A stretch of DNA of 44,452 bases from Candidatus Giovannonibacteria bacterium RIFCSPLOWO2_02_FULL_43_54 (lineage in GTDB: Bacteria > Patescibacteriota > Minisyncoccia > UBA11713 > 2-01-FULL-45-33): the NCBI GenBank assembly GCA_001778875.1, contig MFIK01000037.1, positions 1-44,452 on the forward strand. The letters run 5' to 3'. Shown here one piece after another: positions 1 through 40,573 of the stretch; within the stretch, counting starts at the first letter, position 1, and each line of letters begins with the position of its first letter. The notes under the pieces were generated by a model, which saw only the letters and a list, made by a program, of their open reading frames with translations, did not search any database and was not told the DNA's origin. The position numbers and the translations under genes were made by a program.

Positions 1-372
1 CGCGCGCATGATTTTGCTGGAAACTACAGGGAAGCTCATCAGAAATTGAAGATCGCCTACAGCATTTTGCAGAATTTAGGGCCCGACGGAATAAATGTGA
101 GAAGCAATGTGGTTTTGCCGTGGTCAGCGGTTTATGTTATTTTGGTGTTTTTGATAATTTTGACGCTTTACGCGGCGCATTTCGTCTTTGACCGCCACAG
201 GGAAATCGAGCGAAAATTGGCCATGGGAATTTTGAATCTTGTTGAACACTCGGTTTCGCAAAGACTTAACGTGCTGAAGCAAAAGCGGGAAGAATTTGAT
301 AAGGATAAATTTAAATCGTTCCACGATAAGCGGGAAAATTATTTTAAGGAACATTGGGATGAAAAGAAATAA
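1..372 (+). CDS. hypothetical membrane protein, C-terminal part (frame open to window edge)
   Basis: Frame 1 has no stop from nt 1 (RAHDFAGNYREAHQK...), so the TTG at 46 is probably not the start. It has one hydrophobic helix (VVLPWSAVYVILVFLIILTLYAA) and a K/E-rich tail. No family recognised. Confidence 0.4.
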   Translation, partial: RAHDFAGNYREAHQKLKIAYSILQNLGPDGINVRSNVVLPWSAVYVILVFLIILTLYAAHFVFDRHREIERKLAMGILNLVEHSVSQRLNVLKQKREEFDKDKFKSFHDKRENYFKEHWDEKK

Positions 373-373
373 T

Positions 374-1177
374 ATGACAAATCCTAAGCACGAAATCCTA
401 AATTCTAAACAAATTCAAAATTTCAAATTCGAAATTCAAAACGTTTTGAAATTGGGATTTTTGATTTTGGTATTGTTTAGTGTTTCGATGTTAGGATTTA
501 GTGTTTTCGCCCTGGCGGCGGAGCAGACTACCATCTCTCCTCCTTTGATTACGCTTGTCCCAAAAGATCTCGGAAATAACGAAATATGGTACATTGGCGG
601 CGCGGCATCCGTTCCCCAAGCCGAAGTCGTTATTTATCTTCAGGGCGCGCAGGGAGAAACTTTGAGTTTTACGGCCAAATCTAATGAAAAAGGCGAATGG
701 TTTTACACGCATAATTCGTTTCTCAAAGAAGGCGTTTATAAAAGCTGGGCGCAATTAAAGATCGGCGGGGAATTTTCCCCGCCTGGGCCGGAAGTGTCGT
801 TTGAGATCGTTCCAACCGCGCTCCGAATTGGGACATATCGTGTTAGCTACGAAATGCTTTATCTAGCGTTAGCATTAGCGCTTCTTATGGCGCTTATCGC
901 GTTGGCTTCGTTCGTCATATATCACTTTAGGAGTTTTAGAATAAAGAACGCGCGCTTGCATAAAGAAATAAGGGAAGCCGAGGAAGAAGCGCGGAGGGGG
1001 CTCGATCTTTTGAGAATGGATATTAAAGATGAAATAGAATTCATTTCCAAGATTCGGAAGTCACGGGAGCTCTCCATCGAGGAGCACAGGCGCGAAGAGA
1101 AACTGATGCACGACCTCGATCTGGTGGAAAGGCATCTCCTGAAAGAGATAAGTGACATAGAGCCCGCGTTGTCGTAA
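374..1177 (+). CDS. hypothetical single-pass membrane protein (beta-rich ectodomain, C-terminal TM, coiled-coil tail)
   Basis: I take the ATG at 374 because the track start at 296 overlaps the upstream ORF. The N-terminal ~44 codons are encoded by a palindromic repeat (379-503). A second TM is LYLALALALLMALIALASFVIY, followed by an E/R/K-rich tail. An alternative start is the ATG at 488. Confidence 0.5.
   Translation: MTNPKHEILNSKQIQNFKFEIQNVLKLGFLILVLFSVSMLGFSVFALAAEQTTISPPLITLVPKDLGNNEIWYIGGAASVPQAEVVIYLQGAQGETLSFTAKSNEKGEWFYTHNSFLKEGVYKSWAQLKIGGEFSPPGPEVSFEIVPTALRIGTYRVSYEMLYLALALALLMALIALASFVIYHFRSFRIKNARLHKEIREAEEEARRGLDLLRMDIKDEIEFISKIRKSRELSIEEHRREEKLMHDLDLVERHLLKEISDIEPALS
379..503 (+). 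repeat. palindromic repeat family, copy A (imperfect ~125-nt palindrome centred on caaaacgttttg at 442/443)
   Basis: The left arm is aaatcctaagcacgaaatcctaaattctaaacaa. The right arm ...ttgtttagtgtttcgatgttaggatttag is its imperfect reverse complement. The left arm matches copy B at 34 of the first 36 nt. Confidence 0.75.
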
Positions 1178-1183
1178 AATTAT

Positions 1184-1306
1184 AAAATCCTAAGCACAAA
1201 ATCCTAAATTCTAAATAAATCACAATTCTCAAAATCAAAAAGTTTAAAACATTAGAATTTCGGATTTAGAAATTGTTTAGGATTTAGATATTAGAAATTA
1301 GAATTT
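1184..1306 (+). repeat. palindromic repeat family, copy B (intergenic, between the 374-1177 gene and dnaG)
   Basis: aaaatcctaagcacaaaatcctaaattctaaataaa ... tttagaaattgtttaggatttagatattagaaattagaattt. It has the same orientation as copy A and starts 7 nt after the stop codon at 1177. Confidence 0.7.
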
Positions 1307-1329: not shown

Positions 1330-3045
1330 GTGAGTCAAGTAGAGGACATAAAAACCAAAATAGATATCATTGATCTTGTCGGCTCCTATATTCGGCTTAC
1401 AAAAGCCGGATCTAATTTTAAGGCAAGATGCCCATTTCATAACGAGAAAACGCCGTCTTTTAATGTTTCCCCTGCCAGGCAGATATGGCATTGTTTCGGC
1501 TGCGGAAAGGGCGGGGATGTCATAGAATTCGTAAAAGAGATCGAAGGCGTCGAATTTTTTGAAGCGCTAAAAATGCTGGCTGACCGCGCTGGTGTAGAGC
1601 TGGTTCATGAAGACGCGTCCGCAAAAAACGAGAGAACGAGGACGTTTTCGCTTTTGGAAGATGCCGCGAAGTTTTATGAAGAGGAGCTCGCGCATTCCGA
1701 TTTTCTCGCGCTTAACCCTCTCTACGGGGGCTCCGACGCGTCTCCAAAATCGGAATGCGCTCGCTCTCCTCTTGCATACTTAAGATCTCGAGGCCTTATC
1801 GACGAAACTATCAAAGAATTCCGCATCGGCTACGCGCCGCAGGAATGGAAAAGCATATTTAATCATCTTTTGGAGAAGGGTTTTAAGGCGGATGAAATAG
1901 AATGCGCGGGGCTTATTGTAAAATCGCAAAATTCCAAAGTGGCTGCACAAAATTATTACGACAGGTTCAGAGGCCGGATAATGTTTCCGATATTTGATGC
2001 TTTGGGAAGGGTGATAGCTTTCGGAGGGCGCATGTTCCCGGATAGGGAGAACGAGGCAAAGTATGTGAATTCTCCAGAGACTAATTTATACCAAAAAAGC
2101 AAAGTTCTCTATGGTTTTAATAAATCAAAAAGCGCAATCTTAAAAGCCGGTGAATGCATTGTTGTTGAGGGCTATATGGATATGATCATGTCTTACCAGT
2201 CTGGCGTAAAAAATGTTGTGGCATCTTCCGGCACGGCGCTTACCGCTGACCAATTGAAAATTTTGCGCCGGCTTTCAGAGAAATTGATCACGGCGTTTGA
2301 TATGGATAAAGCCGGCGAGGACGCGGCGAGGCGCGGGATCGCGCTGGCGCTAACCGAAGGCTTCGAGGTGGGAGTCGCCGGCTCGCTTTCAGGATTAAAA
2401 GACCCCGCTGATGCTGTGCGGAAAGACCCCAAAATTTGGAAGGATGCCGTTAAAAACTCCAGGCATGTTATCCAATTTTATATCGATACGGCGCTTGCTA
2501 AATTTCCGGCGTCATCACACGAAGCAAAAAGGGAATTTCAAAGGACCGTAATACCGGCGATTGTATCGCTACCGGATTTGGAAAAAGCGCATTGGATAAA
2601 GCAGATCGGAAAAACACTGGATATCGCGGAGGAGGCCGTTTGGGAGGCGCTTCGGAAATTACAAAATCCAAATAACAAATTACAAACAGCGGAAAACGAA
2701 ATTAAGCAGGCAGCTCCAAATGACAGGAAGCTATTGCTTGAAGGCAAAATATTGGGTATATTGGCACAATATCCGATGTTGGCGGACAAGGTAGAATCGA
2801 ACTTCGAGCCATTACTCCAAAGAAAAGGCACTGCCGCAGTTTTCGCCGAACTTTTTTTAAACGGCGCGATCGAAGCAGAAACAGAATTAGCGCACTGTCA
2901 GCGAGAGTTAAAGAAAGAATATTTGAAAGCGCGGCTCGAGAATTTATCGCAAATCATGCGTGAAGCCGAGAAAAACGGGAATGGCGGCGACCGGAACATT
3001 TTAGAGTTCCAAAGACTGATGTCGGAACTTTCTAAAATGCAATAA
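1330..3045 (+). CDS. dnaG: DNA primase DnaG
   Basis: GTG start. It has a CHC2 zinc finger ([13 protein letters not shown]...[15 protein letters not shown]) and Toprim motifs ([20 protein letters not shown]). It sits directly upstream of rpoD, the classic dnaG-rpoD arrangement. Confidence 0.93.
1690..1760 (+). repeat. perfect 15-bp inverted repeat (41-nt spacer) inside dnaG
   Basis: gcgcattccgatttt (1690-1704) is the exact reverse complement of aaaatcggaatgcgc (1746-1760). The segment encodes aa 121-144, [24 protein letters not shown]. Confidence 0.9.
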
Positions 3046-17031: not shown

Positions 17032-17041
17032 GCGATGAGAG

Positions 17042-17142
17042 CAAATCAAGGAATTTTGGATTGCCTTGCGAGCTCGACGGAGCGAACACGAGGAATTTTT
17101 TGGCAGAAAAATATCCGTGCAATCCAAAATTCTCTTGATTTG
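17042..17142. repeat. 23/24-nt inverted repeat with 54-nt spacer between holB and frr
   Basis: caaatcaaggaattttggattgc (17042-17064) pairs with gcaatccaaaattctcttgatttg (17119-17142). There is one bulged nucleotide and no U-tract. Confidence 0.8.
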
Positions 17143-17162
17143 ATCGAATATAAATAAAAACC

Positions 17163-17757: not shown

Positions 17758-19584
17758 CTAATTTTTCAGTACCACAAATCCCGGGCTTCCGTCTATACGG
17801 AGGTTCGGGATTTTTTCTTTAAGCGTTTCATAGATCGTAGGTCTGGATTCGACGGGAATTATTGTGCAAGGTGCACTACAGTCTATTTTATCAAATTCGG
17901 CGCTTCCAAAATAATAAATATTTTTTTCTTTTTGTTTATTTTCAAAATAGGTATCGGTAATAAAAATAATAGGCGCGAATGAAAGCGGGCGTCCGGTTAA
18001 ATCCACTGCGTCCGCGCTATTCGTTACGACGTATTTTTTAATAGATGATGGCTCATTGTTTAACCAATGAGCCATTTTTGTTTCGTTGCCCAAAAAAGAA
18101 TCATAAACTTCGGGATTCGGCGCCCAGCGGAAAAAATATTGGTTAAAAACGTTTGACGCCGCGGCGATAAAAAAAACGAACAAAACTATTTTGAGTTCTT
18201 TGTGGATACGGTGAATCTGTTTTTTGTGTTCAGGGAAATCAATTTCCCATTCTTCAAATTTCATATTTATACGGCCAATAAGGAATTCGAGGCCTAGTGC
18301 CGCGAAGATCATTGCGGGAGGAATAAGCACTATCGCGCGCAAGGCGTGAGGCAAGCCCTCGGAGGACATTATGACCGGGAGCATCATAACCGAAAACCAG
18401 AGCAAAATAAAATTGGAAGCGCTGCGCGGGAAAACACCCGGTGTTTTTTGGGATTTAACACCGGGTGTTGAGGAGCGCAGCGCTCTCCAAATTCCTATTA
18501 AAAATAAAATACCGACTGGCCACCAGAGCTGGGAGGAGCCGGCATAATTGTGCCTCCAGTTAAAGTCGCCAAAAAAGTTGAACATTTGGGCGGTTTTTAA
18601 AACATTCTCGGAAAATTGGCCCAAAGGCTGTGGCGAGGAAAAAATCGAAATACTTGAGGTCCGACCGAAAAAATCTGCCGGATTTTGCGCGTAATAAATC
18701 AAAAGGGGAGAGGCGGCAACAAGCGCCATAAAAATAAATAGAACGATCAGACACGGCGCGCAGATGCCGTCTTTTAACTTTTCTTCGCGATACTGCTTAT
18801 AAAAGATCCACAACGGATAAAGTGCAATCAGCGGAGCGATACGAAACGCAATGTAGGTGTGGAAGCCGAGGCCTAGTAGCAACCCACCAAGCGAAAAAAG
18901 GAGGGTTGCTGAAATCCGAAATCCCAAATCCGAAATCCCAAACAAATTCCAATTTCCGAAATTCAAAATTCCAAACCGTTTCCGATTTTGGTCATTGGGA
19001 TTTGGGTATTGTTTAGGATTTAGTGCTTGGGATTTAGGATTTTTGTGAGTCAGAAATGCGCTATCAGGCAGTGAAATCCTCATACCACGAAATAAAAAAT
19101 AGAATGCCAATACTAATAATAGCGGGGCCATTATCGCCCGGAAGCCCATTCTGGAAAAAATAATATGCCAAAACGAAGTTGCAAGAAAAAACGACGTAAA
19201 AAGCGCGATTCGTTTATTCGAACTAGATTCGCTATTCGCTGATAATCTAAATAATTCCCTCGTCATCAAATACAAACCCAAAACGGTCAAAATTCCGAAT
19301 ATCGCGGAGGGCAGCCGCAAAACCCACGGCTCATGCCCCAGAAATTTTACGAAAATTGCCTGGATATTTATAAACAAACCTTCTCTGCCGAAATTTTCCG
19401 GATAATAAACTTTCCAGTCACTCCCTTCCAGCGCCTGTATCGTATTTACCCCGTTCATCGCCTCGTCAGACCAAAGCCCCGGAGGAGCTGCTTTTAAATC
19501 ATAGAGGCGCAGAAAAATTGCTATAAAAATAATTAGCGCAATCCACAGCGAAGCCTTGTTTTTCTTCATGCTATATTCTATCAT
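17758..19584 (-). CDS. GT-C fold glycosyltransferase, family 39 (ArnT/PMT-like)
   Basis: About 12 TM helices with an N-terminal DE motif loop (GLWSDEAMNG). It carries two in-frame hairpin segments. An alternative start is the ATG at 19569 (MKKNKASLW). Confidence 0.8.
   Translation of the reverse strand: MIEYSMKKNKASLWIALIIFIAIFLRLYDLKAAPPGLWSDEAMNGVNTIQALEGSDWKVYYPENFGREGLFINIQAIFVKFLGHEPWVLRLPSAIFGILTVLGLYLMTRELFRLSANSESSSNKRIALFTSFFLATSFWHIIFSRMGFRAIMAPLLLVLAFYFLFRGMRISLPDSAFLTHKNPKSQALNPKQYPNPNDQNRKRFGILNFGNWNLFGISDLGFRISATLLFSLGGLLLGLGFHTYIAFRIAPLIALYPLWIFYKQYREEKLKDGICAPCLIVLFIFMALVAASPLLIYYAQNPADFFGRTSSISIFSSPQPLGQFSENVLKTAQMFNFFGDFNWRHNYAGSSQLWWPVGILFLIGIWRALRSSTPGVKSQKTPGVFPRSASNFILLWFSVMMLPVIMSSEGLPHALRAIVLIPPAMIFAALGLEFLIGRINMKFEEWEIDFPEHKKQIHRIHKELKIVLFVFFIAAASNVFNQYFFRWAPNPEVYDSFLGNETKMAHWLNNEPSSIKKYVVTNSADAVDLTGRPLSFAPIIFITDTYFENKQKEKNIYYFGSAEFDKIDCSAPCTIIPVESRPTIYETLKEKIPNLRIDGSPGFVVLKN
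18421..18481. repeat. 61-nt double-hairpin segment inside the GT39 gene
   Basis: The outer stem gctgcgc/gcgcagc encloses two hairpins, aaaacacc-c-ggtgtttt and aacacc-g-ggtgtt. It encodes LRSSTPGVKSQKTPGVFPRSAS. Confidence 0.8.
18911..19045 (-). repeat. palindromic repeat family, copy C: 135 nt (45 codons) in frame inside the GT39 gene
   Basis: The minus strand reads aaaaatcctaaatcccaagcactaaatcctaaacaataccc...gggatttcggatttgggatttcggatttc, an imperfect palindrome related to copies A and B. It is translated as KNPKSQALNPKQYPNPNDQNRKRFGILNFGNWNLFGISDLGFRIS. Confidence 0.8.
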
Positions 19585-28813: not shown

Positions 28814-28952
28814 ATAAATAGGTTATATACTATAAATTGCTGGCACTTTCACCCCGTAAAAACTTTTGCTTTTTCAGGGCTATAGAGCTGGCACTCACAT
28901 AAAGACATAAATTGGAGTATAAACCCTCTATAGCCCTGTGAGCGCAAAAGTT

Positions 28953-38877: not shown

Positions 38878-39059
38878 ATTGTCCCTTGTTTAAACTTAAT
38901 TTCATCTGAAAATTATGCTAGCATGGTTAGATAATAAAGTCCACGATATAGCTAAAAATAAACTGTTACCACCGCGCAATGAATACCCGGCTATTTTGGA
39001 GAAAATTTAGGTGTTGTATAATGAATTTATTAAAAAGCAATAGAGGAATTAAAAATTTA

Positions 39060-39134
39060 ATGCCCCACTTACACGAAGAAAAAATTAAATTCTTAGAAAA
39101 AAAGGCGAACGATATTCGTGAGTCGATTATCTAG
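39060..39134 (+). pseudogene. 24-codon fragment of a transketolase N-terminal subunit gene (second, divergent copy)
   Basis: MPHLHEEKIKFLEKKANDIRESII* versus MPHLHDDKIKFLEQKANDIRQSIIE at 39713. 59 of 75 nt are identical, and 12 of the 16 differences are at third codon positions. Confidence 0.75.
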
Positions 39135-39173
39135 GTACTGGTATTGTTTCGGAAATTGTGTTAGGATAAGCAT

Positions 39174-39536: not shown

Positions 39537-39713
39537 ATGACCATAAAAAGTTATTTTCAGTTGGGTACAGTGTTTCTTGTTATAACTTTTTTGGCTTTAA
39601 TGGTTGGAGTTGATTTAAGACGCGCTTACGAGTTTTATATATTTATTGGCACACCCTTAGCGTTAAGTATGATATTCTTTATAATTGGGAGTTTAAGATA
39701 TTTTAAAAAATAA
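39537..39713 (+). CDS. 58-aa two-TM small membrane protein, translationally coupled to tkt
   Basis: AGAGGAG lies 11 nt upstream of the ATG at 39537. The stop overlaps the tkt start (TAATG). Confidence 0.45.
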   Translation: MTIKSYFQLGTVFLVITFLALMVGVDLRRAYEFYIFIGTPLALSMIFFIIGSLRYFKK

Positions 39714-40573
39714 TGCCCCATTTACACGACGACAAAATAAAGTTTCTTGAGCAAAAGGCCAACGATATCCGGCAGTCGATTATTGAGATGCTTGTTGAGG
39801 CGGGGAGCGGACATACCGCTGGGCCGTTGGGGATGACGGATATTTTTACCGCATTTTATTTTCATATTTTAAATCACGATCCAAAAAATCCGGCGATGGA
39901 AGATCGCGACCACCTGATTTTATCTAACGGCCACATCTGTCCTGTGCAATATGCCGCTATGGCGCATGCTGGATATTTTCCAATTGAAGAATTAAAAACT
40001 CTGCGAAAATTTGGTACCAGATTGCAGGGACACCCGCACCGCGGTTCTTTGCCCGGAGTTGAGACAACTTCCGGTCCTTTGGGTTCCGGGCTTTCGCAGG
40101 CTGCCGGGTACGCTTATGGCGCGCGGATGGATAATAAAAAATTTCGGGTTTATTGTCTGATGTCGGACGGCGAGCAGGATGCTGGCAATACGTGGGAAGC
40201 AGCGATGTTTGCTGGCAAAAATAAATTAAATAATCTTACGGCTCTTATAGATCGCAACAATATCCAAATAGATGGAATGACTGAAGATATTATGCCTTTA
40301 GAAAATTTGCGCGCGAAATACGAAGCGTTTAACTGGCATGTTTTGGAAATTAACGGGCATAACTTTGAAGAAATCGTGAACGCGACTGAAGAAGCAAAAG
40401 CCATATACGAAAAACCGACTTTAATAGTCGCGCATACTATTCCCGGAAAAGGGATAAAAGAGATAGAATTTGATTACAAATGGCATGGCATTCCGCCGAA
40501 TAAAGACCAAGCCGCGAAGTTTTTGTCGGAACTTCGCACGCTGTCAGGCAAGATTACCAGCGGACATCAATAG
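39713..40573 (+). CDS. tkt: transketolase, N-terminal (TPP-binding) subunit
   Basis: GSGHTAGPLGMTD, SNGHICPVQYA, and MSDGEQDAGNTWEA (ThDP motif). The gene is split. Confidence 0.92.
   Translation: MPHLHDDKIKFLEQKANDIRQSIIEMLVEAGSGHTAGPLGMTDIFTAFYFHILNHDPKNPAMEDRDHLILSNGHICPVQYAAMAHAGYFPIEELKTLRKFGTRLQGHPHRGSLPGVETTSGPLGSGLSQAAGYAYGARMDNKKFRVYCLMSDGEQDAGNTWEAAMFAGKNKLNNLTALIDRNNIQIDGMTEDIMPLENLRAKYEAFNWHVLEINGHNFEEIVNATEEAKAIYEKPTLIVAHTIPGKGIKEIEFDYKWHGIPPNKDQAAKFLSELRTLSGKITSGHQ

Follow-up and report, generated by a model that had tools for sequence, protein, structure and literature searches.

We analysed a 44,452-nucleotide (nt) stretch of DNA from Candidatus Giovannonibacteria bacterium RIFCSPLOWO2_02_FULL_43_54 (contig MFIK01000037.1 of assembly GCA_001778875.1; hereafter "the window", meaning this whole stretch), which holds three copies of an imperfect palindrome of ~125-130 nt. 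Copies A and B bracket a conserved hypothetical gene, here called gene X, that stands directly before the primase gene dnaG, and copy C lies within a glycosyltransferase gene. The genes and features concerned are as follows.

46-372, plus strand: upstream gene, whose stop codon TAA (370-372) ends 1 nt before ATG 374.
374-1177, plus strand: gene X, a conserved hypothetical secreted/membrane protein of Patescibacteria with 29 homologues.
379-506, plus strand: copy A (nhmmer E=3.8e-25), 5 nt past the ATG of gene X and in frame, with an A/C-rich left arm (~379-441) and a G/T-rich right arm (~443-506).
509-520, plus strand: c-region and predicted cleavage site (A-L-A / A-E-Q) of the gene X signal peptide, just beyond copy A; the motif AxA/A aligns in orthologues.
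1185-1306, plus strand: copy B (nhmmer E=4.8e-19, full length), intergenic between the gene X stop (1177) and the GTG start of dnaG (1330).
1330-3045, plus strand: dnaG, encoding primase (Pfam Zn_ribbon_DnaG, DNAG_N and Toprim), on the downstream side of the copy B junction.
17758-19584, minus strand: family-39 glycosyltransferase (GT39; PMT_2-like) of 608 amino acids (aa), with a weak Pfam PMT_2 match; host gene of copy C.
18912-19042, canonical orientation on the plus strand: copy C (nhmmer E=2.6e-29), in frame within the minus-strand GT39 gene.

The three repeats are probably non-autonomous copies, lacking an open reading frame (ORF), of an inverted-repeat element of the intervening-sequence (IVS) type whose full form carries a gene of the Pfam family PF05635.

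Direct and inverted repeat searches of the window recovered three full-length palindromes, and a profile hidden Markov model (HMM), built from 54 elements of other phyla with the window copies excluded (the family of alignment A4), matched all three over model positions 1-133 with the plus strand as the best match. The repeats that the initial annotation had placed at 379-503, 1184-1306 and 18911-19045 are real, with ends better set at 379-506, 1185-1306 and 18912-19042, and its statements that the left arms of copies A and B agree at 34 of 36 bases and that copy B follows the gene X stop at 1177 by 7 nt are both correct. Up to two mismatches allowed, the 13-mer AAATCCTAAGCAC occurs five times against 1.25 expected (0 of 100 shuffles reached five). 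Each copy is predicted to fold into a long hairpin (-38 kcal/mol for copy A), with z scores against dinucleotide shuffles of -6.2 (A), -4.3 (B) and -4.5 (C) that bear out their description as imperfect palindromes. They also carry the hallmarks of the family described below, namely the ends AAATCC...GGATTT, a 7-nt periodicity of CTAAA/TTTAG, and the asymmetric core AAACAAAT / ATTGTTTAG; in copy C the T's of the heptads are replaced, yet the register and core are retained. Elsewhere in the window the profile picked up neither full nor half copies, and ~8 kb of other sequence belonging to this genome gave no further copy. Homologous coding sequence, for example a shared signal peptide or low-complexity domain, could be expected to place two copies inside ORFs, and is almost certainly the wrong explanation: copy B lies outside any coding sequence, copies A and C are translated from opposite strands when set in the canonical orientation, their peptides are unrelated, and a profile of the 46-aa translated element, a query too short for such a search, matched no protein family in a database of 5.8 billion sequences.

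The element is far more widespread than the window suggests. A 30-nt degenerate pattern of the right arm, scanned over one genome per GTDB species, was found at 120 or more genome loci spread over more than 20 phyla of bacteria and two groups of archaea, with eight IMG/VR viral contigs bearing it as well. Further copies, which the initial annotation had asked about, were thus found widely in other organisms, and the family is not peculiar to genomes of this kind. Bacterial hosts among the matches listed include many lineages of the candidate phyla radiation (CPR), Omnitrophota, Planctomycetota, Nitrospirota, Chloroflexota, Desulfobacterota, Bacteroidota, WOR-3, Elusimicrobiota, Cloacimonadota, Acidobacteria, Actinomycetes, and Clostridia, with ANME-1/Methanophagales and Nanoarchaeota as archaeal hosts, and several matches sit on contigs or chromosomes of at least 1 Mb. 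Conserved sequence takes in far more than the pattern, the inner arms and the opposite arm included; this nucleotide-level conservation across domains points to horizontal spread, strong constraint on the arms, or both. Extracted from these loci and the window, 93 elements have sharp ends (AAATCC...GGATTT) and are mostly 120-145 nt long. The arms, ~65 nt each, are built of ~7-nt units in which CTAAA (on the second arm, TTTAG) never varies, and many copies contain the inner-arm sequence TTTTGGTCATTTG. A 2-nt stem mismatch is conserved across phyla (left AAACAAATTC versus right reverse-complement AAACAATATC; alignment A4 columns 35-36 and 123-124, or 413-414 / 472-473 in copy A), and it gives the near-palindrome a defined orientation.

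Strong predicted hairpins, a conserved internal mismatch, and a placement at operon junctions that resembles that of repetitive extragenic palindromic (REP), enterobacterial repetitive intergenic consensus (ERIC) and Correia elements, which affect mRNA fate, are all what might be expected of a functional structured RNA or DNA hairpin (a regulatory stem, terminator, mRNA stabiliser, or processing site) maintained for its base pairing. We consider this explanation unlikely. Arm positions pair in 80.5% of cells as against 82.4% when partners are shuffled between copies, no arm-to-arm covariation was seen among the extracted elements, and the shuffles contain more double changes than the real pairs do; pairing itself does not look selected, and the arms would resemble each other because each fits the family consensus (heptads with CTAAA/TTTAG), as protein-recognised terminal repeats do. 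Rfam yielded no match in the window at gathering score, and a permissive search gave only chance-level miRNA-like hits (E>=0.4) over the hairpin; no terminator-like site overlaps copy B, and it has no terminator-like T-run. Such a hairpin would also leave the copies inside ORFs unexplained, though a secondary hairpin effect on transcripts may still occur.

What the arms belong to emerged after the long versions of the element were translated and scanned against Pfam. Some pattern matches have their partner arm 470-640 nt away, and four of these loci (L018, L088, L096, and L100) hold an ORF of ~120 aa between the arms, which matches PF05635 at 46-59 bits (gathering threshold 33.8). [quoted passage not shown] In a reverse test, an alignment of the four PF05635 proteins was used to fetch metagenome relatives by protein similarity alone; at least 573 of the 600 candidate stretches encoded a relative and 80 loci were kept, at which arm-only HMMs placed arms to both sides of the gene in 60 cases, to a single side in 17 and to neither in 3. 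The ATG typically marks the end of the left outer arm, and ~35 nt separate the stop from the right outer arm. Because the PF05635 start codon and first ~7 codons (MTENQNSK...) belong to the inner inverted repeat, deletion of the ORF would leave a near-palindrome of ~130 nt, and many short copies keep the relic AAATGACC / GGTCATTT. Since relatives with the same arms carry PF05635 and the window copies do not, we assign the latter to ORF-less derivatives, not to full members. When the PF05635 protein of locus L002 was run by tblastn against the window and every locus, almost nothing matched, the arm-associated subfamily having diverged too far. A single relative of that subfamily has a solved structure, PDB 2RLD, an uncharacterised protein with five chains.

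Terminal inverted repeats, small size, multiple copies, and a longer ORF-bearing relative are equally the features of a classical miniature inverted-repeat transposable element (MITE), that is, an insertion-sequence deletion derivative that a DDE or HUH transposase moves in trans, and a Y1 transposase gene does lie 2.3 kb from the gene X orthologue at locus L007. A MITE is nonetheless very unlikely here, given that the ORF between the arms is PF05635 and not a transposase in all four long copies, that 77 of the 80 PF05635 loci have arms, and that the loci examined show no transposase associated with the arms. Flanking direct repeats equal the shuffled-partner control, and the target-site signatures that the initial annotation had proposed to look for thus did not appear above control. 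Nor does flank composition show any position-specific signal that would make a start codon or Shine-Dalgarno sequence before the element its target, and the ORFs there do not read through. The Y1 gene at L007 (L007:5024-5722, IS200-type, PF01797) is upstream of a gene X locus without palindromes, and no link between it and the element was seen.

Most copies occupy the very short gaps that separate genes running in one direction. At 31 loci a full-length copy points the same way as both of its flanking genes, and at 1 it opposes both, which fits an ORF dependent on the host operon's transcript; ORF-less copies show no orientation bias (29 to 26). When an ORF of at least 100 codons runs up to a copy, it ends at or within the first 23 nt of that copy in 34 of 37 cases, and 25 of those 34 stops lie inside the element, every one (25/25) being TAA. 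On the other side, 28 of 71 downstream genes start no more than 15 nt from the element end. The 7-nt spacing of TAA/TAG puts stops into each of the six frames of a canonical copy; the median is 21 stop triplets per copy, and only 15 of the 93 have any open frame.

Copy B is a typical resident of this habitat, with 24 stop triplets over both strands, and its junction offers a view of how such copies may form. At loci L005 and L007 the junction is empty, the gene X stop and dnaG start overlapping as ATGA with no spacer. At L002, the same gene X-dnaG junction (L002:5757-6205) is occupied by a distinct PF05635/bAvd-like gene (139 bits), whose heptad arms are its own and have the opposite arrangement (G/T-rich arm first); the encoded protein matches the bAvd-like family weakly (35.8 bits, below the 40-bit cutoff). 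The same insertion recurs at L001:5757-5932 and L003:1621-1796 with its ORF internally deleted to a 35-aa stub, and the comparison of stub and complete gene reads as an ORF-less palindrome caught in the making. Relatives without one or both repeats retain the order upstream gene, gene X, dnaG, which refutes the mobilisable cassette that the bracketing of gene X had suggested; copies A and B bracket gene X because both its boundaries are operon junctions, the family's usual habitat. Within dnaG itself, a palindrome at 1684-1766 (GAGCTCGCGCATTCCGATTTT / AAAATCGGAATGCGCTCGCTC) lies in frame in the linker, for which the DnaG of L001 carries a different insert and that of L005 almost none; a peptide like the one it encodes is found at another position in GT39 homologue P0031.

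Residence inside genes is a minority outcome. Among 148 profile matches in 831 kb, seven (~5%) lie in long ORFs. The leucyl-tRNA synthetase (LeuRS) of a member of the Patescibacteria (L020:427-3231) has one full and two partial in-frame copies, the full one just before the motif VDWYLGGAEHA, and full or partial in-frame copies also occur in SecA (L028:2557-5281), a FolD-like protein (L069:1028-1820), and a radical S-adenosylmethionine (SAM)-like protein (L027:437-1463); a match at L010 is in a probably spurious ORF. The initial annotation had likened the repeats to Rickettsia palindromic elements (RPEs), and the corresponding explanation would be a lineage-specific selfish palindrome of CPR bacteria, spreading within the genome and defined by in-frame insertion. 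Part of that likeness stood, in that the element is multi-copy, forms hairpins, differs in presence between orthologues, and is tolerated in frame in copies A and C and in the Patescibacteria LeuRS; what did not stand is in-frame residence as its defining habit, which is real, exceptional, and not restricted to CPR. With one profile recognising the element in more than 20 phyla and in archaea, contradicting "lineage-specific", with most copies intergenic and closed in all frames, and with arms that belong to PF05635 gene elements, we hold this explanation to be quite improbable.

Copy A is one of the exceptions. In the frame of gene X it translates, as had been noted, as NPKHEILNSKQIQNFKFEIQNVLKLGFLILVLFSVSMLGFS, and it encodes the n- and h-regions of the predicted signal peptide, its T-rich right arm reading LGFLILVLFSVSMLGFSVF, which, judged from sequence, would now act as the hydrophobic core. 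The earlier proposal that the right arm supplies the hydrophobic signal segment holds for the h-region; the c-region is outside the element, and cleavage is predicted at ALA/AEQ from the aligned AxA/A motif. Conservation among the 29 homologues begins at AEQTTISPP and their signal peptides vary, with 26 of 26 orthologues having signal peptides of 16-50 residues that end in AxA/A. The segment is absent from most orthologues at the aligned locus. A full copy occupies the copy A site in L005 (protein P0006, 70% identical; E=2e-23), only the right half does so in L001 (P0002, 86-88% identical; E=3e-7), the state that a deletion of the non-hydrophobic left arm would leave, and P0011 has element-like residues there; the remaining orthologues have ordinary leaders, e.g., MKNIKFKKLILLSIVCLLVFGVQADA.

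Where gene X starts bears on whether copy A is translated. The 1-nt distance between the upstream stop and ATG 374 points to translational coupling of gene X to the upstream gene, a coupling that recurs as an ATGA overlap in L005 and L007, and in P0018 the two ORFs are fused. An alternative in-frame start, ATG 359, lies 15 nt upstream, and the public gene call of L218 uses the equivalent position. Starting at ATG 488, the alternative raised in the initial annotation, would give a 10-residue leader (MLGFSVFALA) without a charged n-region, and is implausible because of that short leader and because the start is coupled to the upstream stop in all orthologues examined. The in-frame TTG 446 would yield a normal-looking leader (MKLGFLILVLF...), of which the h-region would still be encoded by the element.

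Copy C, the third copy that had been described as lying in frame in a gene, does so in a loop following a transmembrane segment of the minus-strand GT39, with both flanks remaining in frame and junction peptides that read ...THKNPKSQALNPK... and ...GFRISATLLF.... Most of the 20 closest homologues are empty at this site (...LFLAMRKSK-EWIFALAGL...; alignment A3), and some GT39 homologues hold unrelated inserts at the exact spot; 2672 homologues carry PF13231/PF02366, and the PMT_2 match of the window protein is weak, probably because of its inserts. Copy C has lost T from all four left-arm heptads, positions at which T is present in 69-94% of family members (joint probability ~6e-4 under independence), and its 8 stop triplets are the lowest count of the 93 copies, with a minimum of 10 among the other 90; copy A is low in stop triplets too. 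Such depletion in copy C is what selection for read-through would produce.

Other repeats were seen in GT39 and elsewhere in the window. A second, unrelated palindrome lies in frame in GT39 at 18418-18484 (28-nt arms, 82% complementary; encoding ...STPGVKSQKTPGVFPRS...), an indel relative to most homologues that is common to P0035 and P0036. At the insertion hot spots of the protein (alignment A3 columns ~173-235, 270-285, and 404-460), homologues hold unrelated repeat-like peptides (SPRSPTSDLQRSRTSSR, EVRLQSVSDGSRTSI, and KAQILQDLAQRDGASRAI), which suggests that other palindromic families may also be translated in CPR proteins. Two further intergenic palindromes are unrelated to the main family: the one at 28861-28952 (27-nt arms, 85% complementary) lies upstream of a murB-like gene, the one at 17039-17145 (14-nt perfect arms) between a holB-like gene and frr. 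A 94-nt direct repeat (39049-39142 and 39702-39795, 77% identity, 653 nt apart) most likely comes from two adjacent paralogous coding regions. At L110 (~2330-2976), two copies of the main family flank an rpmF-like gene (ribosomal protein L32), the ORF entering the downstream copy (...TYTRNSNVSNPKS); inside one of these copies lies a GC-rich insert of unrelated sequence.

These observations are best drawn together by the reading we favour, in which the window repeats probably descend from a PF05635-carrying element by loss of its ORF. Closed by stops in six frames, such an element normally fills the few bases between two operon genes, and its full-length copies would presumably ride on the transcript of the host operon. 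Copy B is an insertion of this sort at the gene X-dnaG junction. Copy A would have landed 5 nt inside the start of gene X and copy C in the GT39 loop, and, their stop triplets being out of frame or mutated away, both could be read as extra peptide; they would survive because they are open in the host frame, and both appear to be translated. The hairpin may in addition be processed by RNase III. For each of the three copies, some orthologues are empty or differ at the corresponding site.

Several points weigh against this reading. The element-bearing gene X orthologues are spread over three clades of a neighbour-joining tree, and repeated insertion at one site or recombination is therefore required. 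No PF05635 gene was found in the window copies, the rest of the window or the extra ~8 kb, which leaves the presence of an autonomous partner in this genome conjectural, and as we know of no catalytic activity for PF05635, "autonomous" is an assumption even for the full-length form. That copies A and C are translated is our inference, and their hairpin may be processed. The taxon labels of contigs in metagenome-assembled genomes can be wrong, which touches the breadth of hosts, and the 93-copy sample was chosen by the right-arm pattern, which biases the statistics of that arm.

Among known systems, the closest are the IVSs of Leptospira and Coxiella burnetii, in which a PF05635 ORF lies within terminal inverted repeats forming a long stem, which are distributed sporadically and horizontally, and of which ORF-less versions exist. 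The copies described here differ in habitat, since the Rfam scan found no rRNA in the window and the 10 loci of full-length relatives examined gave no rRNA match and are flanked by protein genes, whereas IVS sites are helix 9, 25 or 45 of 23S rRNA. They differ too in their arms, which are heptad arrays of ~65 nt and not a 28-bp stem, and in their likely fate, as the RNase III excision that defines an IVS would be destructive inside an mRNA coding region. IVSs in 23S rRNA with a PF05635/S23p ORF and terminal inverted repeats have been described, along with the old hypothesis that the ORF serves mobility (PMC4990558), PF05635 ORFs have been reported from CPR rRNA insertions (PMC11270868), and PF05635 genes have been found wedged between cas genes (PMC3936711). 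The association of IVSs with PF05635 is hence already known; what appears to be new is the heptad arms of PF05635 elements and their ORF-less derivatives. Our search of the literature found nothing on heptad arms, ORF-less derivatives, or CPR palindromic elements, and the initial statement that such behaviour is not established for this kind of genome appears true of the searchable literature, which omits most subscription journals and so leaves room for a prior description.

Likenesses to other repeats are more partial. Like RPEs, the elements are multi-copy palindromes of 100-150 nt that can lie in frame in conserved genes, are presumably translated, and are tolerated in loops or termini, and copies A and C and the LeuRS copy at L020 have just this arrangement. 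The family is set apart by a pan-prokaryotic host range as against Rickettsiales, because of which it is unlikely to be an RPE proper, by the rarity of in-frame residence, and by the existence of an ORF-bearing parent element, of which we know no counterpart for RPEs. In REP sequences or bacterial interspersed mosaic elements (BIMEs) with their REP-associated tyrosine transposases (RAYTs), together known as REPtrons, a small gene is flanked by inverted copies of dispersed intergenic repeats and there is no target-site duplication. The present element likewise has a small gene between inverted repeats that are also dispersed intergenically without an ORF, again with no target-site duplication, but that gene encodes a four-helix-bundle PF05635 protein, not a Y1/HUH transposase, and the repeats are heptad arrays instead of single REP hairpins. 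Correia (Neisseria) and ERIC (enterobacteria) elements are likewise imperfect palindromes, ~100-150 nt long, that sit where two genes meet and are transcribed together with them. Their hairpins are RNase substrates that alter mRNA stability, which makes them, by analogy, a plausible model for copy B; Correia elements differ in their TA duplication and restriction to a genus, and to our knowledge neither group has a PF05635-carrying form. Cyanobacterial short tandemly repeated repetitive (STRR) sequences are, similarly, tandem 7-nt units found intergenically and even inside RNA genes, though they form tandem arrays, not palindromes of ~130 nt, and were described for heterocystous cyanobacteria. 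The STRR2 unit TTGGTCA presumably resembles the inner-arm TTTTGGTCATTTG.

A broader conjecture, which we put forward as speculative and on balance doubtful, is that PF05635 proteins and heptad-array inverted repeats form a distinct class of mobile element without a recognisable transposase in both prokaryotic domains. The protein would act on the 7-nt arrays for spread or retention, insertions would be harmless at operon junctions by virtue of their stops in every frame and their co-transcription, and both 23S IVSs and the in-frame inserts in housekeeping proteins of CPR would be side products. Under this conjecture, and by analogy with its relative bAvd, the PF05635 four-helix bundle may be, for example, a pentameric nucleic-acid binder.

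That one PF05635 subfamily is almost always framed by a heptad-array inverted repeat leads to two hypotheses for this family, that the protein binds the arms and that deletion generates the palindromes. The thousands of gene-less derivatives of ~130 nt across bacterial and archaeal phyla should be useful for studying mobility and horizontal spread. For annotators, the element explains odd peptides in CPR and metagenomic proteins (NPKSEILNSKQ... and ...FGISDLGFRIS) as well as odd N-termini like the gene X signal peptide. In Candidatus Giovannonibacteria, copy A would be a clear case of selfish DNA recruited as a functional segment of a protein, a function that we read from its sequence.

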